64,000 nucleotides of DNA from Escherichia coli (GTDB taxonomy: Bacteria; Pseudomonadota; Gammaproteobacteria; Enterobacterales; Enterobacteriaceae), in assembly GCF_016903815.1 (NCBI RefSeq), contig NZ_CP069973.1; one strand, given 5' to 3'. Position numbers and translations under genes: made by a program. This document shows, one piece after another, positions 10,589 to 43,429 of the stretch (its first letter is position 1; each line of letters opens with the position of its first letter). The notes beneath the pieces were generated by a model, which was given only the letters and a program-made list of their open reading frames with translations, was not told the DNA's origin and made no database searches.

Positions 10589-10594
10589 AAAATA

Positions 10595-19307: not shown

Positions 19308-20039
19308 TCACCTGCCATCCAGTAAACGCCCCGGCCCACGACTGCAACCATAATTACGTTGACCAGAACCGTCATGCTGCTTCGTCTCATACTTCACGAG
19401 ATAACAGGCTCTCTCCATGGCTTTCTGCATCGCTTCCACATCACCACGCTTGACCCAGAGCACAGCGGATCCACCAGATTTTTTGTCAGAAGCTTTCCGG
19501 GTATCAGAACATCCACCCGACAAAGGCGTATCATCGGAAGAAGGGCGAGCATCAGATGATGCCGGTTTACGGAAAGGCGTCCGCCTGGAAAAATGAACCA
19601 GTCCATTACCCTGCCAGGGTTCAAGATGCAGAGCGCTACACCATGCCAGCTTGATCAGCGTCGCCAGCGAAGAAGGAACGGTGAAATCCCCTAGCGAGCA
19701 CCAGGTATCTTTGTTGAGCAGTAATATCACGTGATAATGTTTCCTGCCTTTTTCCTTGCCAAACTCCCGACACCAGAAATAACGCAGAGTGGTTGCACGC
19801 ACACGCTTGTTGGCACGTCGTTTATGTCGCTGGTAAGCCTGAATTTTTGCTTTCAGGGATTCGAAAAAACGAGAAATCACCGCTGAATCCGAATCGGGAT
19901 CCATGATGGTGACAGGCATATACTCAGGGAAACGTAAATCCATCCGGATTAACGAGACGACACGGTGTTGCGCCAGGGCACTGTTGAGAATACTTTCAAA
20001 ACGGGATAACCAGTAAGCATTGTGTATTGGTTGATTCAT
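19308..20039 (-). CDS. YagK/YfjJ-family (inovirus Gp2-like) protein, paralog
   Basis: 243-aa ORF MNQPIHNAYWLSRFESILNSALAQHRVVSLIRMDLRFPEY... parallel to the two other paralogs. Confidence 0.6.
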   Translation of the reverse strand: MNQPIHNAYWLSRFESILNSALAQHRVVSLIRMDLRFPEYMPVTIMDPDSDSAVISRFFESLKAKIQAYQRHKRRANKRVRATTLRYFWCREFGKEKGRKHYHVILLLNKDTWCSLGDFTVPSSLATLIKLAWCSALHLEPWQGNGLVHFSRRTPFRKPASSDARPSSDDTPLSGGCSDTRKASDKKSGGSAVLWVKRGDVEAMQKAMERACYLVKYETKQHDGSGQRNYGCSRGPGRLLDGR

Positions 20040-21682: not shown

Positions 21683-22522
21683 TTGATATGGGGTTTAATA
21701 ACAGATAACCCGGAAAGAAGGAGAAAACAGATGACATTACGGATTAACGATCAGGGGCGAGATAAACAGAATCAATTTTTATCGAAAAATGGAGAAAATC
21801 TGAATTCGTTAAAATCGCGTCATGTGCAGGATAGGCATTTACCTGAATGGCTTAAGGATAAAGTTGCAGCATTCTGGTTTTGTCTGGTGATAAAGGATAT
21901 GAAAGTGTCAGGGAGCAGTTACTATGAACTTACCATGCAACTTCCCACTTCTGAAGAATCTGTTTGCATCAGTAAGCTGTCATCCTCAACCCATGAGATT
22001 CGGCTGGAGATCATCAGGCGATGGATTGATAGTGTAGCGCAGATAGAAACGGAAGCTTTTACTAAAAATCTCGTTGATGCCATCTATAAAAACTGGAAGG
22101 AAATCGGGAACAAAAACCAGGCCACATGGCTTAAAAAAAATCCGGAACAACTCGAGTGGGCATGGAAATATATTAACATTCGTATTCCCGAGTCACATTT
22201 AACCTGGTTTTGCCCCGTCAATAACGAAGAGAAACGCATTGCCATCTTAGCATTGCTTAAAATACTGTATCCCGGAGATATACCATGCCAGTACAACGAC
22301 AAAGAGTTTCATGTCGGGATCTGCGCTGAAGAACATTTTTACAGAAGAATGCACGACGCTTTCAGAAAACAGTTTATCGACGGGAAAAAAGATAAACGGG
22401 TACAAATTAACGTAAAGATATCACCGTCCGCAAAAAGCGCTCTGGACAGACTGACCAGAGCGAGGAAAACAACACAGCAGGCTATTCTGGAACAACTGAT
22501 TCTGAACGGTAGACTGGATTAA
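21683..22522 (+). CDS. Hypothetical protein (no recognisable domain; possible ribbon-helix-helix-like C-terminus)
   Basis: 279-aa ORF; likely true start at MTLRINDQ (21731); function unknown. Confidence 0.5.
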   Translation: MIWGLITDNPERRRKQMTLRINDQGRDKQNQFLSKNGENLNSLKSRHVQDRHLPEWLKDKVAAFWFCLVIKDMKVSGSSYYELTMQLPTSEESVCISKLSSSTHEIRLEIIRRWIDSVAQIETEAFTKNLVDAIYKNWKEIGNKNQATWLKKNPEQLEWAWKYINIRIPESHLTWFCPVNNEEKRIAILALLKILYPGDIPCQYNDKEFHVGICAEEHFYRRMHDAFRKQFIDGKKDKRVQINVKISPSAKSALDRLTRARKTTQQAILEQLILNGRLD

Positions 22523-23520
22523 CTTTCACTACTTCCACTCCTGGCAGTTTTCCTCTTTTTGTAGTGTCTCCCGGCTGCAGGCATCAGGTACTTTTCCGTC
22601 ATTTCGTTGCAGAACTCTTCAATGTAGTTAATCAGCTTCTGGTGTGCTTTCACCTTTTCTTCCCCGGGGGACGCTTTCAGATAAATGTCCTCCTTTTCCA
22701 CAAGTGTATTTATAAACTCTCCCGGACATCCCTGGTTATAAAGCAACGTGAAAAACAACACATTCCCCAGTCTCTCCAGTAACTGCGATTTAACCCTGTA
22801 TTGTTGTTTGCTGAGGATTGATTGTTTTATAAAGCTTAGTCTTGTTAAAAGTTGTTCAAATCCCGGTTCCAGTTTAAAAACAGATTTTAATACCAGGGAC
22901 TGATACTCCTGATAAAAAAGTTCAAACGTCGGGGATGCAGACTGACGAACAGATTTGGCTACAACCCATGGACTAAATCCCATGATTGGGATTTCCTTCG
23001 CTCCCTCCAGCGCACTCAGAGGTAGTCCAGCAATCCATGCGTCCAGCTTAGCCGAATCAATATCCCCGCTCAAAACCTCATACAAACTGCCCGTGAACGG
23101 TTGAGTCGGTTTTTTTGTTGTTTTACCTTCTGATTGCCTGAATCCATCCACTTTTCTCCGGATATTACGCGGAATCAGCATAAAAGGCGGGACATTAAGT
23201 GATAAACGTTTACCCGTCATACGATACCAGTGGCCCACCTCAACCTTAATCCGTGTATCTGGCCTTGTATCTGGCCTTGTATCTGGCCTTAGCTCAAGTG
23301 CTATTATGTTAAGCAGGTACAGATAACGCACCGTATAACAGTCAAAATGTTTCTCCGGATCAAACGGCTCTGATCGTTCTCTGCACACAAGTCCGCTGCG
23401 CTTCAGTATTCGCTGGGTATCTTTCCAGGCCTTACTCTGAAGAATGGTGGTAACTCTGGCTTTATTAGCAATCTCACGCAGCGCATCACTTTGTTGTGCC
23501 GTCATCTCTTCCCTCCACAC
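22519..23520 (-). CDS. Hypothetical protein containing in-frame tandem repeat (RPDT)x3, divergent from GTPase gene
   Basis: 333-aa ORF; 12-bp tandem repeat at ~23255-23292; function unknown. Confidence 0.55.
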   Translation of the reverse strand: MWREEMTAQQSDALREIANKARVTTILQSKAWKDTQRILKRSGLVCRERSEPFDPEKHFDCYTVRYLYLLNIIALELRPDTRPDTRPDTRIKVEVGHWYRMTGKRLSLNVPPFMLIPRNIRRKVDGFRQSEGKTTKKPTQPFTGSLYEVLSGDIDSAKLDAWIAGLPLSALEGAKEIPIMGFSPWVVAKSVRQSASPTFELFYQEYQSLVLKSVFKLEPGFEQLLTRLSFIKQSILSKQQYRVKSQLLERLGNVLFFTLLYNQGCPGEFINTLVEKEDIYLKASPGEEKVKAHQKLINYIEEFCNEMTEKYLMPAAGRHYKKRKTARSGSSES

Positions 23521-23611
23521 TTTGTCACTCCAGATTTTTTCACGTCCATATTACCTGAATGATAAACCGGATTAGTGTGATCCGGTTCAGCGAAATCAAC
23601 AGGATACCGGT

Positions 23612-24496
23612 ATGTCATTCAGCCATTCTTCCCTCTCTGCACAAGTGAAATCATATCTGACGTTTCTTCCTGAAGAAATTCGCCAGAAAATCCTTGAACA
23701 TCTCCACGGTGTTATTCATTACGAGCCCGTGATTGGCATTATGGGTAAATCCGGCACAGGCAAAAGCAGCCTGTGTAATGCCATTTTTCAGTCCCGTATC
23801 TGCGCCACGCATCCCCTGAACGGCTGCACCCGCCAGGCTCATCGTCTTACCCTGCAGCTCGGTGAACGCAGAATGACGCTGGTCGATCTGCCCGGCATTG
23901 GTGAAACACCGCAGCATGATCAGGAATACCGGACACTTTATCGTCAGCTGCTACCGGAACTGGATCTGATTATCTGGATCCTACGGGCTGATGAACGTGC
24001 GTATGCTGCCGATATTGCCATGCATCAGTTTTTACTGAATGAAGGTGCAGATCCCTCGCGTTTTCTGTTTGTTCTCAGCCATGCCGATCGCGTGTTTCCT
24101 GCTGAAGAATGGAACGACACAGAAAAATGCCCGTCCCGTCAGCAGGCGCTCTCACTGGCGACGGTGACAGCCCGGGTGGCAACCCTGTTCCCTTCATCAT
24201 TTCCGGTACTCTCCGTTGCTGCACCTGTCGGCTGGAACCTTCCGGCGTTTGTGTCGCTGATGATCCACGCACTGCCACCACAGGCAACCAGCGCGGTGTA
24301 TTCACATATCCGGGGAGAAAACCGCTCTGAACAGGCCCAGAAACACGCACAACAGACTTTTGGTGACGCCATCGGGAAAAGCTTTGACGCTGCCGTTGTC
24401 CGGTTCAGTTTTCCGGCCTGGATGTTACAGCTTCTCCGTAAAGCCCGGGACCGCATTATCCACCTGCTGGTCACACTGTGGGATCGTCTGTTCTGA
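23612..24496 (+). CDS. YeeP/YkfA-family GTPase (cryptic-prophage type)
   Basis: 294-aa ORF with P-loop GIMGKSGTGKSS and G-domain motif DLPG. Confidence 0.8.
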   Translation: MSFSHSSLSAQVKSYLTFLPEEIRQKILEHLHGVIHYEPVIGIMGKSGTGKSSLCNAIFQSRICATHPLNGCTRQAHRLTLQLGERRMTLVDLPGIGETPQHDQEYRTLYRQLLPELDLIIWILRADERAYAADIAMHQFLLNEGADPSRFLFVLSHADRVFPAEEWNDTEKCPSRQQALSLATVTARVATLFPSSFPVLSVAAPVGWNLPAFVSLMIHALPPQATSAVYSHIRGENRSEQAQKHAQQTFGDAIGKSFDAAVVRFSFPAWMLQLLRKARDRIIHLLVTLWDRLF

Positions 24497-24614
24497 GCGC
24501 CCCGGAGTCCCCCGTGGCAACCGTATACCTTTACACGACAACGGATTACGGTAACCACTGCCGTATACCGTCTGTCATTATCAATAACACGCTCTTTAAT
24601 TTCAGAGGTCAGTC

Positions 24615-25292
24615 ATGAATACCAGAATTCTTTTTCCCCTGCTGTTCACTGTGGCATCCTTCTCCGCCTCCGCCGGCAACTGGGCTGTCAAAAACGGCTG
24701 GTGTCAGACCATGACGGAAGATGGTCAGGCACTGGTAATGCTGAAAAATGGCACGATTGGTATTACCGGCCTGATGCAGGAATGCCCGAATGGCGTACAG
24801 ACGCTCCTGGGCAGCCGTATCAGTATTAACGGTAACCTGATCCCCACATCACAAATGTGTAATCAGCAGACGGGATTCAGGGCTGTTGAGGTGGAAGTCG
24901 GACAGGCGCCGGAAATGGTCAAAAAAGCCGTTCACTCCATAGCAGAGCGTGATGTGTCCGTTTTACAGGCATTTGGTGTACGAATGGAATTCACCCGCGG
25001 TGATATGCTGAAGGTCTGTCCGAAATTTGTCACATCACTTGCCGGTTTTTCCCCGAAACAGACACCCGCCATTAATAAAGATTCCGTCCTGCAGGCTGCC
25101 CGGCAGGCATACGCCCGGGAATATGACGAGGAAACAACAGAAACCGCTGATTTTGGCTCTTACGAAGTAAAAGGCAATAAGGTTGAGTTTGAAGTGTTCA
25201 ATCCTGAAGACCGTGCGTACGACAAAGTGACCGTCACGGTTGGTGCTGACGGTAATGCCACCGGTGCCAGCGTTGAATTTATCGGAAAATAG
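24615..25292 (+). CDS. Secreted hypothetical protein (signal peptide)
   Basis: 225-aa ORF with N-terminal signal peptide [20 protein letters not shown]; no recognised domain. Confidence 0.5.
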
Positions 25293-25297
25293 CCGGT

Positions 25298-25531
25298 ATG
25301 TCGGACTGTCACCCTGTTTTATTGCCCGAAGGCCCTTTCTCACGCGAACAGGCGGTTGCCGTCACAACAGCTTACCGCAATGTGCTTATTGAAGATGACC
25401 AGGGAACGCATTTCCGGCTGGTTATCCGTAATGCTGAAGGTCAGTTGCGCTGGCGATACTGGAATTTTGAACCTGATGCCGGAAAACAGCTAAATCCGCA
25501 TCTCGCCAGTGAGGGAATTCTCAGGCAATAA
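25298..25531 (+). CDS. DUF905-family small protein
   Basis: 77-aa ORF in the position that DUF905 occupies in CP4-type islands. Confidence 0.5.
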
Positions 25532-25620
25532 ACGTCTTCATTTCATCCATCAGGCCGCGTCTTCTCCGGGAGACGCGGCCTTTTCATTTATACCGCTAAC
25601 TCATTCATAAGGAGCAAAGT

Positions 25621-26439
25621 ATGCAATTAGCCAGTCGTTTTGGTCATGTAAATCAGATCCGTCGGGAGCGCCCACTGACACGCGAAGAACTGATGTACCA
25701 CGTCCCGAGTATTTTTGGAGAAGACCGGCACACCTCCCGCAGTGAACGGTATGCGTACATTCCCACCATCACCGTCCTGGAAAATCTGCAGCGGGAAGGC
25801 TTTCAGCCGTTCTTCGCCTGCCAGACCCGTGTGCGCGACCAGAGCCGTCGGGAATATACCAAACACATGCTGCGTCTGCGGCGGAGCGGACAGATAACCG
25901 GCCAGCATGTGCCTGAAATTATTCTGCTCAACTCCCATGACGGTTCATCCAGCTACCAGATGTTACCCGGATATTTTCGTGCCATCTGCACCAATGGCCT
26001 GGTCTGCGGTCAGTCGCTGGGAGAAGTCCGGGTGCCACACCGGGGAAACGTGGTGGACAGGGTGATTGAAGGTGCTTACGAAGTGGTGGGCGTTTTTGAC
26101 CGGATTGAGGAAAAGCGTGATGCCATGCAGTCGCTGCTCTTACCGCCACCGGCACGTCAGGCACTGGCTCAGGCGGCACTGACTTACCGTTATGGTGACG
26201 AACATCAGCCCGTCACCACTGCCGACATTCTGACACCACGACGCCGGGAGGATTACGGTAAGGACCTGTGGAGTGCTTATCAGACCATCCAGGAGAATAT
26301 GCTGAAAGGCGGGATTTCCGGCCGCAGTGCAAAAGGAAAACGTATCCATACCCGGGCCATTCACAACATCGACACCGACATTAAGCTCAATCGCGCATTG
26401 TGGGTGATGGCGGAAACGCTGCTGGAGAACCTGCGCTGA
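25621..26439 (+). CDS. DUF932-family protein (YafZ-like)
   Basis: 272-aa ORF; size and position match yafZ-type genes of E. coli cryptic prophages. Confidence 0.6.
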   Translation: MQLASRFGHVNQIRRERPLTREELMYHVPSIFGEDRHTSRSERYAYIPTITVLENLQREGFQPFFACQTRVRDQSRREYTKHMLRLRRSGQITGQHVPEIILLNSHDGSSSYQMLPGYFRAICTNGLVCGQSLGEVRVPHRGNVVDRVIEGAYEVVGVFDRIEEKRDAMQSLLLPPPARQALAQAALTYRYGDEHQPVTTADILTPRRREDYGKDLWSAYQTIQENMLKGGISGRSAKGKRIHTRAIHNIDTDIKLNRALWVMAETLLENLR

Positions 26440-26491
26440 TGCCGTTTACCTGAATCACGTCTGTCCCTGCCCCCGAGCCTTCTTCATTCAT

Positions 26492-27001
26492 TTGCTTTTT
26501 ATAAGGAATAATATCATGACAACCTCTTCGCATAATTCCACCACACCTTCTGTTTCCGTAACTACTGCATCAGGGAATAACCAGTCTCAACTGGTTGCCA
26601 CTCCCGTCCCTGATGAACAGCGCATCAGCTTCTGGCCGCAGCACTTTGGCCTCATTCCACAGTGGGTGACCCTGGAGCCCCGCGTCTTCGGCTGGATGGA
26701 CCGTCTGTGCGAAGACTACTGCGGTGGTATCTGGAATCTGTACACCCTGAACAACGGCGGGGCATTTATGGCACCCGAACCGGATGACGATGATGACGAA
26801 ACATGGGTACTGTTCAATGCCATGAACGGTAACCGCGCTGAAATGAGCCCGGAAGCTGCCGGTATTGCCGCCTGTCTGATGACGTACAGTCATCATGCCT
26901 GTCGTACGGAGTGTTATGCCATGACGGTCCATTATTACCGGCTGCGGGATTACGCCCTGCAGCATCCGGAATGCAGCGCCATTATGCGCATCATCGACTG
27001 A
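26492..27001 (+). CDS. Antirestriction protein (KlcA/ArdB family, YfjX/YafX-like)
   Basis: 169-aa ORF (probable start MTTSSHNS at 26516); characteristic acidic stretch PEPDDDDDETW. Confidence 0.7.
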   Translation: MLFIRNNIMTTSSHNSTTPSVSVTTASGNNQSQLVATPVPDEQRISFWPQHFGLIPQWVTLEPRVFGWMDRLCEDYCGGIWNLYTLNNGGAFMAPEPDDDDDETWVLFNAMNGNRAEMSPEAAGIAACLMTYSHHACRTECYAMTVHYYRLRDYALQHPECSAIMRIID

Positions 27002-27493
27002 ATGGAGGCAGGGACAATGCAGCAGCTTTCCTTTCTGCCCGGAGAAATGACGCCCGGCGAGCGCAGTCTCATTCTGCGGGCTCTGAAAACCCTGGACCGC
27101 CATCTTCATGAACCCGGTGTGGCCTTCACCTCCACCCGTGCGGCACGGGAATGGCTGATTCTGAACATGGCGGGACTGGAGCGTGAAGAGTTCCGGGTGC
27201 TGTATCTGAATAACCAGAATCAGCTGATTGCCGGTGAAACCCTCTTCACCGGCACCATCAACCGCACGGAAGTCCATCCCCGGGAAGTGATTAAACGCGC
27301 CCTGTATCACAATGCCGCTGCCGTGGTGCTGGCACACAATCACCCGTCAGGTGAAGTCACACCCAGCAAGGCAGACCGCCTTATTACGGAACGTCTGGTA
27401 CAGGCACTGGCCCTGGTGGATATCCGGGTGCCGGACCATCTGATAATCGGTGGCAGCCAGGTTTTCTCCTTTGCGGAACACGGTCTGCTTTAA
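27002..27493 (+). CDS. RadC-like JAB-domain protein (YeeS/YkfG-like)
   Basis: 163-aa ORF with JAMM-like motif VVLAHNHPSGEVTPSKADRLIT. Confidence 0.8.
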   Translation: MEAGTMQQLSFLPGEMTPGERSLILRALKTLDRHLHEPGVAFTSTRAAREWLILNMAGLEREEFRVLYLNNQNQLIAGETLFTGTINRTEVHPREVIKRALYHNAAAVVLAHNHPSGEVTPSKADRLITERLVQALALVDIRVPDHLIIGGSQVFSFAEHGLL

Positions 27494-27561
27494 CCCGTCA
27501 CCGTCACAACCACATCACACCTGTTTTCACTTTTATCTTCTGTCTTCAGAGGTATCACACT

Positions 27562-27783
27562 ATGAAAATCATCACCCGTGGTGAAGCCATGCGTATTCAC
27601 CGTCAGCATCCTGCATCCCGTCTTTTTCCGTTCTGTACCGGCAAATACCGCTGGCATGGTGGCACTGAAGCGTATACCGGTCGTGAAGTGCAGGATATTC
27701 CCGGTGTGCTGGCTGTATTTGCAGAACGCCGTAAGGACAGTTTTGGCCCGTATGTCCGGCTGATGAGTGTCACCCTGAACTGA
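27562..27783 (+). CDS. DUF987-family protein (YeeT/YkfH-like)
   Basis: 73-aa ORF MKIITRGEAMRIHRQHPASRLFPFCTGKYRWHG..., near-identical to my recollection of YeeT. Confidence 0.8.
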   Translation: MKIITRGEAMRIHRQHPASRLFPFCTGKYRWHGGTEAYTGREVQDIPGVLAVFAERRKDSFGPYVRLMSVTLN

Positions 27784-27945
27784 TGTTCCGTCACCCGGGA
27801 AACGAGTACGACCAGATGACCTCAGACGCCGCTGTGGATGAGGCCATTCTCATCAACGAATACACCTTCACCGAAACCGGTCAGCGCGCCGGCTGACCTG
27901 TCATCATTAAACCATTCTTAACCACTTTTCAGAGAGGATTTTATC

Positions 27946-28314
27946 GTGTCAGACAAACTCTCCGGGATAACTCATCCCGACGACAATCACGACCGCCCCT
28001 GGTGGGGGCTTCCCTGCACAGTGAGGCCCTGTTTTGGCGCTCGTCTGGTGCAGGAGGGTAACCGCCTGCATTACCTTGCCGACCGCGCCGGTATCAGAGG
28101 CCGCTTCAGCGACGCAGATGCATACCATCTGGACCAGGCCTTTCCGCTGCTGATGAAACAACTGGAACTCATGCTCACCAGCGGTGAACTGAATCCCCGA
28201 CATCAGCATACCGTCACGCTGTATGCGAAAGGGCTGACCTGCGAAGCCGACACCCTCGGCTCCTGTGGTTACGTTTATCTGGCTGTTTATCCGACGCCCG
28301 AAACGAAAAAGTAA
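27946..28314 (+). CDS. cbeA: Type IV antitoxin CbeA (YeeU/YagB family)
   Basis: 122-aa ORF immediately upstream of cbtA; matches my recollection of YeeU-family antitoxins. Confidence 0.8.
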   Translation: MSDKLSGITHPDDNHDRPWWGLPCTVRPCFGARLVQEGNRLHYLADRAGIRGRFSDADAYHLDQAFPLLMKQLELMLTSGELNPRHQHTVTLYAKGLTCEADTLGSCGYVYLAVYPTPETKK

Positions 28315-28403
28315 ACCACCGGAATAACCTTCTGCTCCGGCCTGGTGCTTTCACCACGCCACTTTTCCATTTTTCATCTCTGCATATCAGGAAAACCTTC
28401 AGT

Positions 28404-28781
28404 ATGAAAACATTACCCGATACACACGTACGGGAGGCATCGAGCTGCCCGTCTCCCGTCACCATCTGGCAGACTCTGCTCTCCCGACTACTGGGCCAGC
28501 ATTACGGCCTTACACTGAATGACACACCGTTCGCCGATGAACGTGTGATTGAGCAGCATATTGAAGCTGGCATTTCACTGTGTGATGCGGTGAATTTTCT
28601 CGTGGAAAAATACGCGCTGGTGCGTACCGACCAGCCGGGATTCAGCACTTGTCCCCGCTCTCAGTTAATAAACAGTATTGATATCCTCCGGGCTCGCCGG
28701 GCGACCGGCCTGATGACCCGCGACAACTACAGAACGGTAAATAACATTACCCTGGGTAAACATCCGGGGGCGAAACAATGA
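28404..28781 (+). CDS. cbtA: Type IV toxin CbtA (YeeV family, cytoskeleton-targeting)
   Basis: 125-aa ORF MKTLPDTHVREASSCPSPVTIWQTLLSRLL..., YeeV-family pattern. Confidence 0.8.
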   Translation: MKTLPDTHVREASSCPSPVTIWQTLLSRLLGQHYGLTLNDTPFADERVIEQHIEAGISLCDAVNFLVEKYALVRTDQPGFSTCPRSQLINSIDILRARRATGLMTRDNYRTVNNITLGKHPGAKQ

Positions 28782-29200
28782 AACTGGCCCTGACGCTGGA
28801 AGCCGACAGCATTAATGCGCAGGCGCTGAACATGGGGCGCATTGTCGTTGACGTCGATGGTATTAAGCTCGCTGAACTGATTAACAAAGTCGCTGAAAAC
28901 GGTTATTCACTCCGCGTGGTGGATGAACATGACGCTACCGAAACACCGGCGACTTCTGCCAGCCCTCATCAGTTGCCGGAAGACAATACAGTGATACAGA
29001 GCGTGATGCCATTAACCACTGAAACAGCGCTGGATATCCTCATTGCGTGGCTGCAGGACAATATTGACTGCGAATCGGAAATTATCTTTGACAACGATGA
29101 GGACAAAACGGATTCGGCAGCACTGTTGCCCTGTATTGAACAGGCCAGGGAGGATATCCGTACCCTGCGCCAACTGCAGCTTCTGTACCAGAACCGGTGA
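28778..29200 (+). CDS. YeeW-like protein (DUF5983)
   Basis: 140-aa ORF overlapping the cbtA stop, as in yeeV-yeeW. Confidence 0.6.
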   Translation: MKLALTLEADSINAQALNMGRIVVDVDGIKLAELINKVAENGYSLRVVDEHDATETPATSASPHQLPEDNTVIQSVMPLTTETALDILIAWLQDNIDCESEIIFDNDEDKTDSAALLPCIEQAREDIRTLRQLQLLYQNR

Positions 29201-29284
29201 GTCTTACTCACCAGACTTCATTCCACTGACGCCAGCCTGAACAGGGCAGGCGTTTTCATTTATCTGCAAAAAGGAATATCGATT

Positions 29285-30127
29285 ATGTCTGAAATCACAG
29301 CCCCCCGTCCGGAAGTGGTCAACGGGCATACGGACGTTATCTGCTCAACCAGTATCCGCCACATTCTGGCTGTACGAAAGAGTACACTGCTGCAAATCGA
29401 CACACTTATCCGGCAACTGGCTGAAATATCAGCAATGACAGAAAGTATTGGCGGTAAAGCCGCCCCGGGCTGGGCCATGAAACAGGATTTTCGCTACGGC
29501 TGCTGGCTGATGGAGAAACCGGAAACCGCAATGAAAGCCATCACACGCAATCTCGATCGCGAAATCTGGCGTGACCTGATGCAACGTTCAGGGATGCTTT
29601 CCTTAATGGATGCACAGGCCCGTGATACATGGTACCGGTCACTGGAGTACGATAATTTTCCGGAAATCAGTGAAGCGAACATTCTGATCACATTTGAACA
29701 ACTACACCAGAATAAGGATGAGGTGTTTGAGCGAGGGGTGATCAACGTCTTCAGGGGACTGAGCTGGAATTACAAAACCAATTGCCCCTGCAAATTTGGC
29801 AGTAAAATTATCGTCAACAACCTGGTGAGGTGGGACCGGTGGGGGTTTCATCTTATCACCGGGCAACAGACTGACCGACTCGTCGACCTGGAAAGAATGC
29901 TACATCTGTTCAGCGGCAAACCGATCCCCGACAACCGGGAAAACATCACTATTCGTCTGGATGGTCACATCCAGTCCGTTCAGGGTAAAGAGCGCTATGA
30001 AGACGAGATGTTCATCATTAAATACTTTAAGAAGGGATCTGCACACATCACTTTCAAAAGGCTGGAACTGATTGACAGAATTAACGATATAATAGCCAAG
30101 TACTTTCCTTCTGTGCTCTCAGCCTGA
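29285..30127 (+). CDS. DUF4942-domain protein
   Basis: 280-aa ORF; last gene before the pheV 3'-end repeat, the usual position of DUF4942 genes. Confidence 0.6.
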   Translation: MSEITAPRPEVVNGHTDVICSTSIRHILAVRKSTLLQIDTLIRQLAEISAMTESIGGKAAPGWAMKQDFRYGCWLMEKPETAMKAITRNLDREIWRDLMQRSGMLSLMDAQARDTWYRSLEYDNFPEISEANILITFEQLHQNKDEVFERGVINVFRGLSWNYKTNCPCKFGSKIIVNNLVRWDRWGFHLITGQQTDRLVDLERMLHLFSGKPIPDNRENITIRLDGHIQSVQGKERYEDEMFIIKYFKKGSAHITFKRLELIDRINDIIAKYFPSVLSA

Positions 30128-30237
30128 TCCCGAGTGTGATTCCCTTTCGATATCAAAAGGGACTGCGGGTATAATTGAGGGTACATTTTTAATCAAACCA
30201 AATAAATTATATTAATATCAATATGATAAAAGAAATT

Positions 30238-30259
30238 TTCGATTCCGAGTCCGGCACCA
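30238..30259 (+). repeat. Partial tRNA-Phe 3' end (TTCGATTCCGAGTCCGGCACCA), island-boundary att-type direct repeat
   Basis: Matches the 3' end of E. coli tRNA-Phe (GGTTCGATTCCGAGTCCGGGCACCA) with one G missing; no complete tRNA upstream. Confidence 0.75.
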
Positions 30260-30274
30260 CTAATTCTTAAGAAC

Positions 30275-30296
30275 CCGCCCACAAGGCGGGTTTTTG
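30275..30296 (+). terminator. Rho-independent terminator hairpin (CCCGCC-ACAA-GGCGGG + T-run) downstream of the tRNA remnant
   Basis: Perfect 6-bp stem, 4-nt loop, TTTTT; seen directly. Confidence 0.7.
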
Positions 30297-30429
30297 CTTT
30301 TGGATCTTTATATAAAATAAACTTGGGAGCATAACGCCATCAGGTCTTAAACACTCCCGAATCATCAATAAACATCCCCCGTTAACAAAACACAGTTCAG
30401 TTCACATAACATCCCTGTTATCCCACACA

Positions 30430-30649
30430 TATCTGCTGGCCGAACGACGCCAGTGCGCGTACGGAGGCAAGAGCAGCCCTGCACATGGCAGCGCTTGTGG
30501 TAACCTGGTTTAATCCGGTGATAAAGGCGTTTTACATGCATCTGCCAGCAGCCGGAAAAACCAAAAAAGTGGCGCTGGTTGACTGTATGCGTAAATTGCT
30601 GACCATCCTGAACGCAATGCTCAGAAAAAACGAAGAGTGAAATGAATCG
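30430..30649 (+). pseudogene. IS110-family transposase C-terminal remnant
   Basis: Translation ...AALVVTWFNPVIKAFYMHLPAAGKTKKVALVDCMRKLLTILNAMLRKNEE* matches the conserved IS110-family C-terminus; no upstream catalytic domain. Confidence 0.6.
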
Positions 30650-30659
30650 TAGCATCATG

Positions 30660-31450
30660 TTGCTCCATAATTTTTACGTTCAAGACAGTTGATTATCGGC
30701 GCATATGACTCAAAAAGAGCCTGATGATTGCCTCTTTTCCATAGGCTCTTTCTCTGAAGTGAAGGAAGGCCCGGAAGAAAGCACTCGCTGGCATACGTGA
30801 CTCCAGCTCAACCGGAGATAATCACCATTGTTATTTTTCTATTTAATAATAATCTCCTGAAAAATAGATATAGCAAAAATACAATCCGGCCAGATTTAAT
30901 TCCGCATTCATTACCAGAAATAATCAACACCACAACTATCATATCATTCAATAGTCACCGCTAAAATTTTATTATTTTCCTCTTCTTTACATGGAAATTG
31001 TCAACCTGTTTATTATGCCGCACTTAAATAGTTAATCACAAAACAACATCACCATTATTTGCGTGTTTTATTTATTAATAACATAGTCATACGTTCTTTT
31101 TTTACAAGGAAATAATCAATTGATAAATTGTTTTTGGTCTTAATAGTCAAGTAGGAAACATTTTAATAAATGATAAAAATCCTAAATTCCTTGTTCATAA
31201 TGTAGGGGTGTGTTAAATAGGTGGGCAAAATTTGGTTCCCCTTCTCGCCTGTAATATTGCAGCATCTTCGCACCTCCATGAGACATTGCGACTTAATAAG
31301 AAGGTGATAAGTCCTGCATATAAGCATGGACTGACCATGGTTTTATATTCATTAAAAATTTTGTTACAACCCATTGATTTAGCATAAATAAATTATAGTG
31401 GGTTCGGGTTAGTTGTGACTGTGGCATTATTTCCGTGCAAAGGAGCTGAT
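30660..31450 (+). promoter_or_regulatory. AT-rich kps region 1 promoter/leader region upstream of kpsF
   Basis: ~790 bp AT-rich non-coding DNA upstream of kpsF; exact promoter elements not resolved. Confidence 0.35.
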
Positions 31451-32434
31451 ATGTCTGAAAGACATTTACCTGATGACCAGAGCAGTACTATCGATCCATA
31501 TCTAATTACCTCTGTTCGCCAGACTCTGGCAGAACAAGGCGCAGCATTACAAAACTTGTCTAAACAACTGGATTCCGGGCAGTACCAGCGTGTCCTTAAT
31601 TTGATAATGAACTGTAAAGGTCACGTTATTCTTTCGGGAATGGGTAAATCAGGGCATGTCGGTCGTAAAATGTCAGCGACGCTGGCCTCTACGGGTACGC
31701 CTAGTTTCTTTATTCATCCTGCAGAAGCTTTCCATGGCGATCTGGGCATGATTACGCCTTACGATCTTCTGATCCTTATTTCTGCCAGCGGTGAAACGGA
31801 TGAAATCCTCAAGCTAGTTCCTTCACTGAAAAATTTCGGCAACCGAATTATCGCCATTACCAATAATGGAAATTCCACGCTGGCGAAAAATGCTGATGCC
31901 GTGCTGGAACTCCACATGGCGAATGAAACCTGCCCGAATAATCTTGCACCAACAACGTCTACCACGCTGACGATGGCGATCGGCGATGCGCTGGCGATTG
32001 CCATGATCCACCAACGCAAATTTATGCCGAATGATTTTGCGCGCTATCACCCGGGCGGTTCATTAGGTCGTCGCCTGCTGACCCGCGTTGCTGATGTCAT
32101 GCAGCATGATGTTCCTGCGGTACAGCTGGATGCGTCATTTAAAACCGTGATTCAACGTATCACCAGCGGATGCCAGGGAATGGTGATGGTAGAAGACGCA
32201 GAAGGTGGGCTAGCGGGCATTATCACCGACGGTGACCTGCGTCGCTTTATGGAAAAAGAGGATTCTCTGACATCCGCCACGGCTGCGCAGATGATGACAC
32301 GTGAACCGCTGACGCTACCGGAAGACACCATGATCATTGAAGCGGAAGAAAAAATGCAAAAGCACCGCGTCTCAACGTTATTGGTGACCAACAAGGCAAA
32401 TAAAGTCACTGGCCTTGTGCGCATTTTCGACTAA
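31451..32434 (+). CDS. kpsF: Arabinose-5-phosphate isomerase KpsF (SIS + CBS domains)
   Basis: Starts MSERHLPDDQ...; SIS motif GMGKSGHVGRK; first gene of kps region 1. Confidence 0.9.
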   Translation: MSERHLPDDQSSTIDPYLITSVRQTLAEQGAALQNLSKQLDSGQYQRVLNLIMNCKGHVILSGMGKSGHVGRKMSATLASTGTPSFFIHPAEAFHGDLGMITPYDLLILISASGETDEILKLVPSLKNFGNRIIAITNNGNSTLAKNADAVLELHMANETCPNNLAPTTSTTLTMAIGDALAIAMIHQRKFMPNDFARYHPGGSLGRRLLTRVADVMQHDVPAVQLDASFKTVIQRITSGCQGMVMVEDAEGGLAGIITDGDLRRFMEKEDSLTSATAAQMMTREPLTLPEDTMIIEAEEKMQKHRVSTLLVTNKANKVTGLVRIFD

Positions 32435-32505
32435 TTAAGCAACGGGGTGCGAGAGGTTAGTCTCTCATTGAGTTTGCGCCCCACTGAAACTTTGATAATC
32501 GTTAC

Positions 32506-33654
32506 ATGTTGATAAAAGTGAAGTCTGCCGTATCCTGGATGCGTGCTCGTCTGTCTGCCATCTCACTGGCAGATATCCAAAAACACCTGGCGAAAATCAT
32601 CATTCTGGCACCGATGGCGGTGCTGCTGATCTATCTGGCTATCTTCAGCCAGCCTCGCTATATGAGCGAGTCGAAAGTCGCCATTAAACGCTCGGATGAT
32701 TTAAACAGCGGCAGCCTGAATTTTGGTCTGCTTCTGGGTGCCTCTAACCCCAGTTCCGCAGAAGATGCGTTGTATCTGAAAGAGTACATCAACTCGCCGG
32801 ATATGCTGGCGGCGCTGGATAAGCAACTAAATTTTCGTGAAGCGTTTAGCCACAGCGGGCTCGATTTTCTTAATCATCTTAGCAAGGATGAAACCGCAGA
32901 AGGCTTCCTGAAGTACTACAAGGACCGTATCAACGTCTCGTATGACGATAAAACCGGATTACTGAATATTCAGACGCAGGGCTTTAGCCCGGAATTTGCG
33001 CTTAAGTTTAACCAGACCGTGCTGAAAGAGTCAGAGCGCTTTATCAATGAGATGTCACATCGCATCGCGCGTGACCAGCTTGCCTTTGCAGAAACGGAGA
33101 TGGAAAAGGCACGCCAGCGTCTGGACGCCAGCAAAGCGGAATTGCTCTCTTATCAAGACAACAACAACGTTCTGGATCCACAGGCACAGGCACAGGCGGC
33201 GAGCACGTTAGTGAATACGCTGATGGGCCAGAAGATCCAGATGGAAGCGGATCTGCGTAACTTGCTGACGTATCTGCGTGAGGACGCCCCGCAAGTAGTG
33301 AGTGCGCGTAATGCGATTCAGTCATTGCAGGCACAAATCGATGAAGAACAAAGCAAAATCACAGCGCCGCAGGGTGACAAGCTAAACCGTATGGCGGTGG
33401 ATTTTGAAGAAATCAAATCAAAAGTAGAGTTCAACACCGAGCTGTACAAACTGACCCTGACCTCCATTGAAAAGACCCGTGTAGAAGCGGCTCGTAAGCT
33501 CAAGGTGCTGTCAGTGATCAGTTCGCCACAGTTGCCGCAGGAATCGTCTTTTCCAAATATCCCTTATTTGATCGCCTGCTGGTTACTGGTGTGCTGCCTG
33601 CTGTTCGGCACCCTGAAACTGTTGCTGGCTGTTATTGAAGATCACCGAGACTAA
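32506..33654 (+). CDS. kpsE: Capsule export inner-membrane protein KpsE
   Basis: 382-aa ORF with coiled-coil and terminal transmembrane segments; region 1 position. Confidence 0.9.
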   Translation: MLIKVKSAVSWMRARLSAISLADIQKHLAKIIILAPMAVLLIYLAIFSQPRYMSESKVAIKRSDDLNSGSLNFGLLLGASNPSSAEDALYLKEYINSPDMLAALDKQLNFREAFSHSGLDFLNHLSKDETAEGFLKYYKDRINVSYDDKTGLLNIQTQGFSPEFALKFNQTVLKESERFINEMSHRIARDQLAFAETEMEKARQRLDASKAELLSYQDNNNVLDPQAQAQAASTLVNTLMGQKIQMEADLRNLLTYLREDAPQVVSARNAIQSLQAQIDEEQSKITAPQGDKLNRMAVDFEEIKSKVEFNTELYKLTLTSIEKTRVEAARKLKVLSVISSPQLPQESSFPNIPYLIACWLLVCCLLFGTLKLLLAVIEDHRD

Positions 33655-33674
33655 CGCTGTCGCTGAATGAGTTT

Positions 33675-35354
33675 GTGATGAAATTATTTAAATCAATTTT
33701 ACTGATTGCCGCCTGTCACGCGGCGCAGGCCAGCGCGGCCATTGATATTAACGCTGACCCAAACCTTACAGGAGCCGCGCCGCTTACCGGTATTCTGAAC
33801 GGGCAACAGTCGGATACGCAAAACATGAGCGGCTTCGACAATACCCCGCCGCCCGCACCGCCGGTGGTAATGAGCCGTATGTTTGGTGCTCAACTTTTCA
33901 ACGGCACCAGCGCGGATAGCGGTGCGACGGTAGGATTCAACCCTGACTATATTCTGAATCCGGGTGATAGCATTCAGGTTCGCTTGTGGGGTGCGTTCAC
34001 CTTTGATGGTGCGTTACAGGTTGATCCCAAAGGTAATATTTTCCTGCCGAACGTTGGTCCGGTGAAAGTTGCTGGCGTCAGTAATAGTCAGCTAAATGCC
34101 CTGGTCACATCCAAAGTGAAGGAAGTATACCAGTCCAACGTCAACGTCTACGCCTCCTTATTACAGGCGCAGCCAGTAAAAGTGTACGTGACCGGATTTG
34201 TGCGTAATCCTGGTCTGTATGGCGGTGTGACGTCTGATTCGTTACTCAATTATCTGATCAAGGCTGGCGGCGTTGATCCAGAGCGCGGAAGTTACGTTGA
34301 TATTGTGGTCAAGCGCGGTAACCGCGTGCGCTCCAACGTCAACCTGTACGACTTCCTGCTGAACGGCAAACTGGGGCTTTCGCAGTTCGCCGATGGTGAC
34401 ACCATCATCGTCGGGCCGCGTCAGCATACTTTCAGCGTTCAGGGCGATGTCTTTAACAGCTACGACTTTGAGTTCCGCGAAAGCAGCATTCCCGTAACGG
34501 AAGCTTTGAGCTGGGCGCGCCCTAAGCCTGGCGCGACTCACATTACGATTATGCGTAAACAGGGGCTACAAAAACGCAGCGAATACTATCCGATCAGTTC
34601 TGCGCCAGGCCGTATGTTGCAAAATGGCGATACCTTAATCGTGAGCACTGACCGCTATGCCGGCACCATTCAGGTGCGGGTTGAAGGCGCACACTCCGGT
34701 GAACATGCCATGGTACTGCCTTATGGTTCCACTATGCGTGCGGTTCTGGAAAAAGTCCGCCCGAACAGCATGTCGCAGATGAACGCGGTTCAGCTTTATC
34801 GCCCATCAGTGGCTCAGCGTCAGAAAGAGATGCTGAATCTCTCGCTGCAAAAGCTGGAGGAAGCCTCACTTTCTGCCCAGTCATCCACCAAAGAAGAAGC
34901 CAGCCTGCGAATGCAGGAAGCACAACTGATCAGCCGCTTTGTGGCGAAAGCACGCACCGTGGTTCCGAAAGGTGAAGTGATCCTCAACGAATCCAATATT
35001 GATTCTGTTCTGCTTGAAGATGGCGACGTCATCAATATTCCGGAGAAAACATCGCTGGTTATGGTTCATGGCGAAGTGCTGTTCCCGAACGCGGTGAGCT
35101 GGCAGAAGGGTATGACCACCGAGGATTACATCGAGAAATGTGGTGGCCTGACGCAAAAATCGGGTAACGCCAGAATTATCGTCATTCGTCAGAACGGTGC
35201 TGCCGTCAACGCGGAAGACGTGGATTCACTCAAGCCGGGCGATGAGATTATGGTTCTACCGAAATATGAATCGAAAAATATTGAAGTTACCCGTGGTATT
35301 TCCACCATCCTCTATCAGCTGGCGGTGGGTGCAAAAGTGATTCTGTCTTTGTAA
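33675..35354 (+). CDS. kpsD: Capsule export periplasmic/outer-membrane protein KpsD
   Basis: 559-aa ORF with signal peptide; region 1 position. Confidence 0.9.
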   Translation: MMKLFKSILLIAACHAAQASAAIDINADPNLTGAAPLTGILNGQQSDTQNMSGFDNTPPPAPPVVMSRMFGAQLFNGTSADSGATVGFNPDYILNPGDSIQVRLWGAFTFDGALQVDPKGNIFLPNVGPVKVAGVSNSQLNALVTSKVKEVYQSNVNVYASLLQAQPVKVYVTGFVRNPGLYGGVTSDSLLNYLIKAGGVDPERGSYVDIVVKRGNRVRSNVNLYDFLLNGKLGLSQFADGDTIIVGPRQHTFSVQGDVFNSYDFEFRESSIPVTEALSWARPKPGATHITIMRKQGLQKRSEYYPISSAPGRMLQNGDTLIVSTDRYAGTIQVRVEGAHSGEHAMVLPYGSTMRAVLEKVRPNSMSQMNAVQLYRPSVAQRQKEMLNLSLQKLEEASLSAQSSTKEEASLRMQEAQLISRFVAKARTVVPKGEVILNESNIDSVLLEDGDVINIPEKTSLVMVHGEVLFPNAVSWQKGMTTEDYIEKCGGLTQKSGNARIIVIRQNGAAVNAEDVDSLKPGDEIMVLPKYESKNIEVTRGISTILYQLAVGAKVILSL

Positions 35355-35363
35355 GGAGTTGAA

Positions 35364-36104
35364 ATGAGCAAAGCTGTTATTGTCATCCCGGCTCGTTATG
35401 GCTCATCGCGTCTGCCGGGTAAGCCGCTACTCGATATTGTCGGCAAACCGATGATCCAGCATGTTTACGAGCGTGCGTTACAGGTGGCGGGCGTCGCAGA
35501 AGTTTGGGTGGCAACAGACGATCAGCGTGTTGAAAAGGCCGTGCAGGCATTTGGCGGGAAAGCCATTATGACGCGCAACGATCATGAATCCGGCACCGAT
35601 CGGCTGGTCGAGGTGATGCATAAAGTCGAGGCAGATATCTACATTAACCTGCAGGGCGACGAACCAATGATTCGCCCGCGGGATGTAGAAACGCTGCTAC
35701 AAGGAATGCGTGATGATCCTGCGTTGCCAGTGGCAACGCTATGCCACGCGATTTCTGCCGAAGAAGCGGCTGAGCCAAGCACGGTAAAAGTGGTGGTAAA
35801 TACCCGCCAGGATGCGCTTTATTTCAGCCGTTCGCCTATTCCGTATCCGCGTAATGCTGAAAAAGCGCGCTACCTGAAACACGTTGGTATTTACGCTTAT
35901 CGTCGCGATGTGCTGCAAAACTACAGCCAGTTACCGGAGTCCATGCCGGAGCAGGCGGAATCACTGGAGCAGCTGCGGTTGATGAGCGCGGGGATCAACA
36001 TCCGCACATTTGAGGTTGCCGCAACCGGTCCGGGCGTCGACACCCCAGCATGCCTGGAAAAAGTGCGCGCCCTGATGGCACAGGAACTGGCTGAAAACGC
36101 ATGA
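35364..36104 (+). CDS. kpsU: CMP-Kdo synthetase KpsU (KdsB paralog)
   Basis: 246-aa [41 protein letters not shown]..., CMP-Kdo synthetase pattern. Confidence 0.92.
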
Positions 36105-38128
36105 TTGGCATTTACTCGCCTGGCATCTGGCGTATTCCGCATCTGGAGAAATTTCTGGCGCAACCGTGCCAGAAACTTTCTCTGCTGCGCCCTGTTCCGC
36201 AAGAAGTTGATGCTATCGCCGTGTGGGGACATCGTCCCAGCGCGGCGAAACCAGTCGCCATCGCCAAAGCAGCGGGAAAACCCGTCATTCGTCTGGAAGA
36301 TGGATTTGTGCGTTCGCTGGATCTTGGCGTCAATGGCGAGCCGCCGCTTTCTCTGGTGGTGGATGATTGTGGCATTTACTACGATGCCAGCAAGCCTTCA
36401 GCACTGGAGAAACTGGTACAGGATAAAGCCGGAAATACAGCTCTGATAAGCCAGGCCAGAGAAGCGATGCACACCATCGTGACCGGGGATTTGTCGAAAT
36501 ATAACCTGGCACCTGCGTTTGTGGCTGATGAGTCAGAACGTTCAGACATCGTTCTGGTTGTCGATCAGACATTTAATGATATGTCAGTGACGTATGGCAA
36601 TGCTGGCCCGCATGAGTTTGCTGCCATGCTGGAAGCCGCGATGGCGGAAAATCCTCAAGCCGAAATTTGGGTGAAGGTGCATCCGGATGTCCTGGAAGGA
36701 AAGAAAACAGGTTATTTCGCTGATCTGTGCGCCACGCAACGAGTACGTTTGATTGCCGAGAATGTCAGCCCGCAGTCGCTGTTGCGACACGTTTCCCGGG
36801 TTTACGTCGTGACCTCCCAATATGGCTTTGAAGCCTTGCTGGCAGGAAAACCAGTAACATGCTTCGGCCAGCCCTGGTATGCAGGTTGGGGCTTAACCGA
36901 CGATCGTCATCCACAGTCCGCTTTGTTATCTGCCCGACGCGGTTCTGCCACGCTGGAGGAACTTTTTGCCGCTGCATACCTGCGTTACTGTCGCTATATC
37001 GATCTGCAAACGGGAGAAGTAAGCGATCTATTTACCGTGCTGCAATGGCTGCAATTACAACGTCGACATCTGCAACAGCGTAATGGTTATTTATGGGCGC
37101 CAGGCTTAACGCTGTGGAAGTCAGCGATCCTGAAACCTTTCTTGCAAACGGCAACAAACCGGCTGAGTTTTTCACGTCGTTGTACTGCGGCGAGCGCCTG
37201 CGTGGTATGGGGTGTAAAGGGAGAACAGCAATGGCGAGCCGAAGCGCAACGAAAATCACTGCCGTTATGGCGAATGGAAGATGGTTTTCTGCGTTCATCC
37301 GGACTTGGCTCTGACCTTTTGCCGCCGCTATCGTTGGTCCTGGATAAACGCGGGATCTACTATGACGCCACGCGCCCCAGCGACCTGGAAGTGCTGCTTA
37401 ATCACAGCCAGTTAACACTGGCGCAGCAGATGCGAGCTGAGAAGTTGCGGCAACGGGTGGTTGAAAGCAAACTGAGCAAATACAACCTGGGGGCCGATTT
37501 CTCTCTGCCTGCCGAAGCCCAAGATAAAAAAATCATCCTGGTGCCGGGTCAGGTAGAAGACGATGCCTCTATTAAAACAGGCACTGTCTCGATTAAGAGC
37601 AACCTTGAGTTATTACGCACAGTACGCGAGCGTAATCCGCACGCCTACATTGTTTATAAACCGCACCCGGATGTACTGGTGGGGAATCGCAAGGGCGATA
37701 TTCCGGCAGAACAGATTGCTGAACTTGCTGATTATCAGGCACTGGACGCCGATATTATTCAATGCATTCAGCGCGCAGATGAAGTGCATACCATGACGTC
37801 GCTGTCGGGGTTTGAAGCGTTATTACATGGCAAGCACGTACATTGTTACGGCCTGCCCTTCTATGCCGGTTGGGGTTTAACCGCTGATGAACATCGCTGC
37901 CCGCGTCGCGAGCGAAAATTAACGTTAGCGGATTTGATCTATCAGGCGCTGATTGTTTATCCAACCTATATCCACCCAACACGGCTACAACCTATTACGG
38001 TAGAAGAAGCTGCGGAATATTTAATCAAGACGCCGCGCAAGCCGATGTTTATTACCCGAAAAAAAGCGGGGCGAGTCATACGCTATTACCGCAAATTAAT
38101 TATGTTCTGCAAGGTCAGATTTGGCTAA
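36101..38128 (+). CDS. kpsC: Capsule Kdo-linker transferase KpsC
   Basis: 675-aa ORF with internal duplication (two similar halves); region 1 position. Confidence 0.9.
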
Positions 38129-38162
38129 ACAATTTCATGGTTGACTATTACGCAAATTATTT

Positions 38163-39395
38163 ATGCAAGACAACGCACTAACCATTTTATTATCGGGTAA
38201 AAAATATCTGCTATTGCAGGGACCGATGGGACCTTTTTTCAATGACGTCGCCGAATGGTTAGAGTCATTAGGCCGTAACGCTGTGAATGTTGTCTTCAAC
38301 GGCGGGGATCGTTTTTACTGCCGCCATCGACAATACCTGGCTTACTACCAAACGCCGAAAGAGTTTCCCGGTTGGCTGCGAGATCTCCAACGACAATATG
38401 ACTTTGATACCATCCTCTGTTTTGGTGACTGCCGCCCATTGCACAAAGAAGCAAAACGCTGGGCAAAGTCGAAAGGGATCCGCTTTCTGGCATTTGAAGA
38501 AGGATATTTACGCCCGCAATTTATAACCGTTGAAGAAGGCGGAGTGAACGCATATTCATCGCTACCGCGCGATCCGGATTTTTATCGTAAGTTGCCAGAT
38601 ATGCCTGCGCCGCACGTTGAGAACTTAAAACCTTCAACGATGAAACGTATAGGTCATGCGATGTGGTATTACCTGATGGGCTGGCATTACCGTCATGAGT
38701 TCCCTCGCTACCGCCACCACAAATCATTTTCCCCCTGGTATGAGGCTCGTTGCTGGGTTCGTGCATACTGGCGCAAACAACTTTACAAGGTAACACAGCG
38801 TAAGGTATTACCGAGGTTAATGAACGAGTTGGATCAACGTTATTATCTTGCCGTTTTGCAGGTATATAACGATAGCCAGATTCGTAACCACAGCAGTTAT
38901 AACGATGTACGTGACTATATTAATGAAGTCATGTACTCATTTTCGCGTAAAGCGCCGAAAGAAAGTTATTTGGTGATCAAACATCATCCGATGGATCGTG
39001 GTCACAGACTCTATCGACCATTAATTAAGCGGTTAAGTAAGGAATATGGCTTAGGTGAGCGAGTCATATACGTGCACGATCTCCCAATGCCGGAATTATT
39101 ACGCCACGCAAAAGCAGTAGTGACAATTAACAGTACGGCAGGGATCTCTGCGCTGATTCATAACAAACCACTCAAAGTGATGGGCAATGCCCTGTACGAC
39201 ATCAAGGGATTGACGTATCAAGGGCATTTGCACCAGTTCTGGCAGGCCGATTTTAAACCGGATATGAAACTGTTTAAGAAGTTTCGGGGGTATTTATTGG
39301 TGAAGACGCAGGTTAATGGGGTTTATTATGGGGAGATGGTTTTTAACAAGATAAAACTGGATGAATATTTTCAGAGCGTGTCGTGTCAAGTATGA
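38163..39395 (+). CDS. kpsS: Capsule Kdo-linker transferase KpsS
   Basis: 410-aa ORF following kpsC. Confidence 0.9.
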   Translation: MQDNALTILLSGKKYLLLQGPMGPFFNDVAEWLESLGRNAVNVVFNGGDRFYCRHRQYLAYYQTPKEFPGWLRDLQRQYDFDTILCFGDCRPLHKEAKRWAKSKGIRFLAFEEGYLRPQFITVEEGGVNAYSSLPRDPDFYRKLPDMPAPHVENLKPSTMKRIGHAMWYYLMGWHYRHEFPRYRHHKSFSPWYEARCWVRAYWRKQLYKVTQRKVLPRLMNELDQRYYLAVLQVYNDSQIRNHSSYNDVRDYINEVMYSFSRKAPKESYLVIKHHPMDRGHRLYRPLIKRLSKEYGLGERVIYVHDLPMPELLRHAKAVVTINSTAGISALIHNKPLKVMGNALYDIKGLTYQGHLHQFWQADFKPDMKLFKKFRGYLLVKTQVNGVYYGEMVFNKIKLDEYFQSVSCQV

Positions 39396-39656
39396 AATAT
39401 AATAATAAACAACACAAAACAATTATTAAAATGATGCCATTTTAATGTTACAAATATAAACAACACCCATCCACAAGCCAAGTTAAAAATCCAAGATATA
39501 ATTTTGTTATTATCTATAAATAATACAAGTATAATCTATACGCTAATCAATTATTTTTGTAGAAAATTTATTTTATTAGTATTTACACGAAAATATGACG
39601 AAGTTATTAGCATTACACATTTATAATCATCAAATATGAAAATATTGTTACTATCA

Positions 39657-42204: not shown

Positions 42205-42232
42205 CCATTTTTTTAAAAATTGATAAGTAACT

Positions 42233-43423: not shown

Positions 43424-43429
43424 ATTTAT

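Follow-up and report, generated by a model that had tools for sequence, protein, structure and literature searches.

Downstream of a CP4-like gene module, a stretch of Escherichia coli DNA of 64,000 nucleotides (contig NZ_CP069973.1; the window) carries a short copy of the 3' end of a tRNA-Phe gene, and a capsule (kps) locus lies beyond it. Does this copy bound a genomic island, and is the capsule locus part of that island or a unit of its own? A first-pass annotation, made from the sequence alone, had read the repeat and the terminator behind it as an attachment-site-type boundary and had placed kps outside. Our analysis supports this reading with a probability of about 0.95: a genomic island of the P4-integrase type, inserted in the 3' end of pheV, has its right-hand junction (attR) at positions 30238-30307, and kps is a separate unit beyond it.

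A pheV remnant and its native flank

The 22-mer TTCGATTCCGAGTCCGGCACCA occurs once in the 64-kb window, on the + strand at 30238-30259; no further copy with up to three mismatches was found there, and 100 shuffles yielded none. We aligned it to the last 23 nt of K-12 pheV (TTCGATTCCGAGTCCGGGCACCA), the 3' terminus of which reads ...GGTTCGATTCCGAGTCCGGGCACCA, and found 22 of these 23 nt in the window, the GGG run being shorter there by one G. The earlier description of the 22-mer as a tRNA-Phe 3' end minus one G is thus accurate. A sequencing error could be ruled out, as published tables and many assemblies made independently show the one-G deletion too. ARAGORN and Rfam detected no tRNA gene in the whole 64-kb window (the only Rfam hits were ALIL and JUMPstart), and the sequence 5' of 30238 does not resemble tRNA-Phe. 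The 22-mer hence belongs to tRNA-Phe, and neither a complete tRNA nor, in particular, an intact pheV immediately upstream precedes it, in line with the first-pass annotation.

The sequence that follows the remnant is identical to the K-12 DNA 3' of pheV over 48 of 48 nt (30260-30307). A terminator scan located a 12-pair hairpin and then a T-tract at 30268-30296, and the hairpin folds with a minimum free energy of -19.5 kcal/mol (z = -4.8). The identity of the flank to K-12 indicates that this is the displaced native terminator of pheV, a predicted intrinsic (rho-independent) terminator kept as at the empty site. The perfect hairpin that had been noted after the repeat is thus pheV's own. The coordinates given for repeat and hairpin, 30238-30296, are correct as well; we refine them in that the K-12-identical flank runs 11 nt further, to 30307. 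The coordinates of all features are collected in Table 1.

Table 1. Features at the right end of the pheV island and in the adjoining capsule segment
Feature	Position in window	Strand	Basis or remark
GI-pheV interior and right part	1..30237	.	RefSeq annotation of strain 222; pheV/int end outside window
DUF4942 gene, last island gene	29285..30127	+	WP_001290171.1, RefSeq annotation; ORF
Island-side arm (P arm)	30128..30237	+	two GNGGGTAYA copies; arm conserved at pheU-located island ends
attR core, pheV' remnant	30238..30259	+	equals attR tabulated for 16 reference strains (PMC11537424, Table 1)
pheV chromosomal flank with predicted intrinsic terminator	30260..30307	+	K-12 identity, terminator scan, fold
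Separate 17.5-kb insertion, IS110 remnant and kps	30308..47856	.	blastn breakpoints against K-12, annotation
IS110-family transposase remnant, 60 C-terminal codons	30458-30640		NF033542 positions 282-342 of 343
kps region 1	kpsF starts 31451		annotation
kps region 2	39657-45178	-	annotation
kps region 3, kpsT/kpsM	to 46795		annotation
JUMPstart element	46824-46862	-	RF01707, 57 bits
yghD (gspM), K-12-type backbone resumes	47857..48392	-	96.4% identity to K-12 from 47857

Contents and left end of the island

Within the window, the island carries sucrose genes, IS1203, a truncated mkoA, IS66, type VI secretion (T6SS) remnants, thsB and a CP4-like yee/yfj module. This right-hand module comprises genes for a GTPase, DUF905, DUF932, antirestriction, RadC, DUF987, YeeU/CbtA, DUF957 and DUF4942 proteins. 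The DUF4942 gene ends at 30127 and the repeat begins at 30238, so that the repeat does bound a CP4-like module ending with DUF4942, as proposed earlier; the name of this last gene comes from the RefSeq annotation, an NCBIfam search with its protein having returned no hit.

Several cargo genes deserve separate mention. The Mokosh gene mkoA (4173-8678, - strand; PADLOC PDLC03921, E = 2e-188) breaks off near residue 1030 of 1607 and adjoins the IS1203 copy, with its ALIL frameshift pseudoknot (5031-5147); mkoA of strain 222 (see below) is intact, with 1,652 aa. The Thoeris TIR protein ThsB (18180-18884, + strand) gives a full-length match to PADLOC PDLC00424 (E = 2.7e-128), and about 1.5 kb without an annotated gene precedes it. 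The truncated T6SS baseplate genes tssG and tssF (11429-13929, - strand) lie between IS66 fragments and are remnants of a degraded T6SS cluster.

The left end of the island lies outside the window, and we examined it in E. coli strain 222 (NZ_CP020516.1, a urine isolate), a near-identical reference: window positions 9700-50900 differ from it by 2 mismatches in 41,201 positions. In this genome, an intact 76-nt pheV is found downstream of yqgA (record positions 881232-881307), 59 kb left of the repeat. Next come a terminator hairpin that differs from the native one, GGACCTCC-ACGG-GGAGGTCC plus Ts, and an integrase of 420 aa (record positions 879772-881034) with Arm-DNA-bind_3, Phage_int_M and Phage_integrase domains, a predicted architecture typical of P4-type integrases. 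The intact pheV and the integrase that the earlier reading implied at the far end are thus both located in strain 222. Position 1 of the window maps 13.1 kb right of pheV in strain 222, and by collinearity pheV and int would lie about 13 kb beyond the left edge of the window, as seen in strain 222 only. We had to infer this distance from strain 222 because no complete genome searched has the first 12 kb of the window contiguously; the best, strain 98224, has them in three pieces, and strain 2779 is 100% identical to window positions 4173-12000. The two islands differ, the window having no counterpart of about 15.9 kb beside the IS1203 copy. If its unseen left part is collinear with strain 222, the island in the source genome measures about 43 kb.

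These findings bear on whether the 22-mer could match tRNA-Phe by coincidence, or be the decayed remainder of another tRNA-Phe gene, lost by deletion. The one observation that fits such an origin is the absence of the 5' part of a tRNA from the window. The shuffles, the 48-nt K-12 flank, and the intact pheV with a matching repeat and an integrase at the other end of the island all speak against it, as does the recurrence of this junction at pheU and in over 1,200 genomes. We consider this explanation refuted by the left end in strain 222, the flank identity and the pheU copies, and give it next to no credence.

The capsule locus is a separate unit

We compared the region right of the repeat with the K-12 pheV-yghD junction by blastn. 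Homology covers 30238-30307 and restarts at 47857 in the end of yghD; 17,549 bp (30308-47856) stand in place of a 101-bp K-12 spacer, which is absent from the rest of the window. The IS110 remnant and the capsule locus indeed lie between the repeat and gspM, where the first-pass annotation had put them. The two ends of this segment share no direct or inverted repeat of more than 8 bp, and no integrase was found within it. We also looked for a second pheV-like repeat bounding kps, with the 22-mer (up to three mismatches) and with 11-14-nt cores (up to two substitutions), and obtained scattered chance hits only.

To count the four possible arrangements, we used junction-specific queries of about 1.2-1.3 kb against 5,426 complete E. 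coli genomes, requiring at least 80% coverage in one place. Island and kps together (DUF4942 end, attR, IS110/kps side) were present in 550 genomes; kps only (yqgA, intact pheV, terminator, IS110/kps side) in 209; the island only (DUF4942 end, attR, K-12 spacer, yghD) in 706; and neither (yqgA, pheV, K-12 spacer, yghD) in 1,488, the remaining genomes having other junction types. The unoccupied alleles, both the K-12-like and the kps-positive ones, break exactly at the repeat and have the same flank. Each of the four combinations thus occurs, and the breakpoints do not change between them, which indicates that gain and loss of the island are separate from those of kps; the genome counts support the earlier proposal that kps was acquired apart from the island. 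On this sequence evidence, the group 2 kps locus is an independent, integrase-less unit between pheV and yghD.

An older view, reflected in the names PAI V536 and PAI-pheV, would make island and kps one composite pathogenicity island and the pheV' repeat an internal relic. Island and kps do lie side by side, the capsule counts as PAI-pheV cargo in reviews (PMC7545054; PMC7387560), and across genomes their association is positive, with an odds ratio of about 5.5 from genome counts not corrected for phylogeny. Yet a composite island is hard to reconcile with the four presence/absence combinations and their identical junction sequences, with the native pheV terminator between island and kps, with a far end of kps that has neither repeat nor integrase, and with the different dates assigned to the arrivals of the PAI and of K1-cps (PMC10272209). 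We thus regard it as very improbable: despite some reviews, the data argue against capsule plus PAI-pheV as the unit of acquisition. With kps as a separate unit, attR delimits the pheV island precisely from the capsule locus in this genome, which matters for annotation and for tracing the movement of virulence and defence cargo.

The capsule locus itself has the features of its group. A JUMPstart element in a long AT-rich leader upstream of kpsM is as expected for a group 2 capsule region 3 promoter. The annotated products of region 2 are a CDP-glycerol glycerophosphotransferase, a glycosyltransferase of family GT29, a TPR protein, a hypothetical protein and a small protein resembling cytidylyltransferases, the last of which carries the annotation 'pantoate--beta-alanine ligase'. 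This predicted gene set points to a glycerol-phosphate-containing K antigen.

Comparison with described elements

This boundary is an ordinary, known one: its exact sequence, its role as attR and the position of kps outside have all been described. Nhu et al. (2024, PLoS Genet; PMC11537424) list TTCGATTCCGAGTCCGG-CACCA in their Table 1 as the attR of GI-pheV in 16 reference strains, among them APEC O1, S88, ED1a, H10407, 55989, 042, 536 and REL606. The same attR, with kps outside GI-pheV, is in print elsewhere too (PMC10272209, PMC7387560). Our comparison with other pheV islands accordingly returned an identical repeat, of their 23-bp imperfect type, at the same right-end position at pheV in a P4-integrase island, with a yee (CP4-like) module at the right end and kps outside the island, as here (PMC11537424). 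We see no material difference from GI-pheV; the cargo in our window (sucrose operon, Mokosh, Thoeris, T6SS remnants) makes it another mosaic variant.

Arredondo-Alonso et al. (2023, Nat Commun; PMC10272209) described a PAI between kpsF and pheV with 22-bp repeats and a P4-like integrase, intB. Its presence or absence was independent of the K1 capsule locus, at least 14 losses were inferred within CC95, and the arrivals of PAI and K1-cps were dated to different times (PMC10272209). The PAI-V beside K1-cps in CC95 shares the pheV-kpsF placement, the 22-bp repeats, a P4-like integrase and the independence from the capsule locus with our island; PAI V536 and the Shigella flexneri She PAI, which that paper cites, belong here as well. 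Our window has a capsule other than K1, region 2 encoding the CDP-glycerol glycerophosphotransferase, GT29 protein and cytidylyltransferase-like protein named above, and the virulence cargo is also different.

A one-base indel in the core is expected to lower integrase-mediated recombination, as discussed by Nhu et al. (PMC11537424). This attR is present in the CC95 strains APEC O1 and S88, and the PAI is inferred to have been lost at least 14 times within CC95; the imperfect repeat is thus evidently no bar to loss.

We also considered two wider groups of elements. The pheV site of K-12 is empty. The cryptic prophage-like elements of the CP4 type in this strain, CP4-6, CP4-44 and CP4-57, resemble our island in having a P4-type integrase at the 3' end of a tRNA or tmRNA gene and share a conserved right-hand module with a YeeP-like GTPase, DUF932, antirestriction, RadC, YeeU/CbtA and DUF4942 proteins, but they use other attachment genes. 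Integrative conjugative elements (ICEs) of the ICEEc2/SPI-7 type at pheV or pheU use the same tRNA gene and place a tRNA-Phe 3' repeat at the same native flank, also with GG. They differ in their 49-50-nt repeat, which starts from the anticodon stem, in their ParA/DnaB-PI conjugative genes and in their right end.

Proposed integration and candidate integrase sites

We propose that the island carried a copy of the last ~23 nt of tRNA-Phe and integrated when a tyrosine integrase recombined this copy site-specifically with chromosomal pheV. The resulting attL would consist of the native 5' part of pheV and the island copy of the 3' end, followed by the island-borne terminator and int, and attR of the island arm, the orphaned tRNA 3' end and the original terminator with its downstream flank. 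The pheV' remnant would have no tRNA function and would serve as a partner for excision recombination, for which the losses inferred in CC95 and the island-free alleles are indirect evidence. The IS110 remnant and the kps locus, starting 48 nt past the remnant and beyond the terminator, represent a distinct insertion. The observed arrangement of attL and attR corresponds, by sequence, to the classical product of such recombination at a tRNA 3' end.

The P arm contains the motif GNGGGTAYA at 30165-30173 and 30177-30185 (+ strand). The motif recurs between pheV and int in strain 222, as GTGGGTATAATTGCGGGTATA and as an inverted TGTACCCTC. Moreover, the 11-mer GGGTATAATTG is common to the P arm and to the pheV-int arm (P' arm) of strain 222, with an estimated chance expectation of about 0.03 at such sequence sizes. 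The GNGGGTAYA copies are plausible candidates for integrase arm-type sites.

The other published type of attR, TTTCATTCCGATTCCGGGCACCA (PMC11537424), allows the strand exchange to be placed more narrowly. Every difference between it and the tRNA sits left of the last 11 nt, and strand exchange thus probably takes place within TCCGGGCACCA. The missing G most probably lies in this likeliest strand-exchange region, being within the last 11 nt of the repeat; a 7-bp overlap anywhere in TCCGGGCACCA would take in most of the G-run.

Recurrence of the missing G

We asked where the forms with two and three Gs (GG and GGG) occur. Identity bands were unusable as counts of the two forms, being confounded by partial matches to pheU and attL, and exact full-length matches were used. 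The island end with GG adjoins three right flanks, a K-12-type pheV flank, a diverged pheV-type flank and the pheU/cadC flank; this island end thus occupies pheU, the other tRNA-Phe gene, as well. It also exists with a perfect GGG repeat. Conversely, GG next to the native pheV flank is also the attR of an SPI-7/ICEEc2-type ICE and of a DUF6387-ended island. Both forms are thus found on the island side as well as on the chromosome side, which agrees with a strand exchange in the last 11 nt.

The same G is missing from a full-length pheV without an island in at least 11 of the 5,426 complete genomes (100% identity over 141 nt, including leader and native flank). This 75-nt gene (e.g. L008:2475-2549; also L011-L015) is still annotated as tRNA-Phe by PGAP. 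The 11 genomes represent at least four flank backgrounds: M9682-C1 is kps-positive, EC2, Z1323CEC0015, HCP5S3_I2 and MINF_8D are K-12-like with different SpeC/YghD alleles, and TOK-001 has a gsp deletion. In another two genomes, this deletion affects a tRNA-Phe copy at about 4.4 Mb, near pheU by map position, with a flank common to pheU and to island-occupied pheV. A control deletion of one C on the opposite strand of the same stem was found in none of the genomes. When folded, the one-G-deleted sequence keeps the cloverleaf, with C4 of the acceptor stem bulged at a cost of about 7 kcal/mol, and ARAGORN calls the 75-nt pheV only with a shifted frame.

These island-free one-G-deleted genes are probably scars of island loss, in which the defect of the remnant was passed to the tRNA gene; it is possible that such alleles arose by independent slippage. 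Two accounts of the missing G were weighed. One takes it for a neutral slip after integration, fixed in the orphan remnant, which would stay at pheV and immobilise the island. A run of three Gs can slip, the remnant is unconstrained, and a core indel should cut recombination, as argued in PMC11537424. We nonetheless think this account unlikely, as it sits poorly with the GG form next to the same island end at three right flanks, including pheU/cadC, and at the pheV flank with other elements, the SPI-7/ICEEc2-like ICE and the DUF6387-ended island. Nor does it easily accommodate the GG form in island-free pheV genes (at least 11 genomes, at least four flank haplotypes) and in two tRNA-Phe genes that map near pheU, the existence of a GGG version of the same attR, the empty one-C control, or the repeated loss, at least 14 times, of CC95 islands bearing this attR (PMC11537424, PMC10272209).

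The other account, to which we give somewhat more weight and which we still offer tentatively, at less than even odds, is that the missing G belongs to the stretch in which strands are exchanged, so that GG and GGG forms can move among the orphan 3' end, the island and the working tRNA gene. If this is true, loss of the island would sometimes leave a 75-nt pheV or pheU with a bulged acceptor stem, which would probably be impaired as a tRNA-Phe gene, and the cost of excision would be inherited. A later element, such as an ICEEc2-type ICE with its own 50-nt tRNA 3' half, would repair the scar. The recurrence of the defect in island-free tRNA-Phe genes suggests that island loss can damage the host tRNA gene. 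We found no description of the 75-nt scar allele in the literature searched, and this recurrence of the remnant's one-G deletion is the sole element of our analysis that is potentially, and modestly, new.

Two observations on neighbouring elements were made in the course of these comparisons. At pheV, an SPI-7/ICEEc2-type ICE (ParA, DnaB-PI) has as its attR a 49-nt tRNA-Phe 3' fragment with GG (L009:2501-2549, L010). By subtraction (72 - 11), about 61 genomes have the GG attR of such an ICE. The GG form next to the native flank suggests that the ICE integrated into a scarred pheV allele. At pheU, the K-12 DNA downstream of the gene (terminator and yjdQ integrase remnant, locus L007:392-751) is homologous to the left arm of the strain 222 island (L004), and the 'native' pheU flank is thus itself a relic of an older island.
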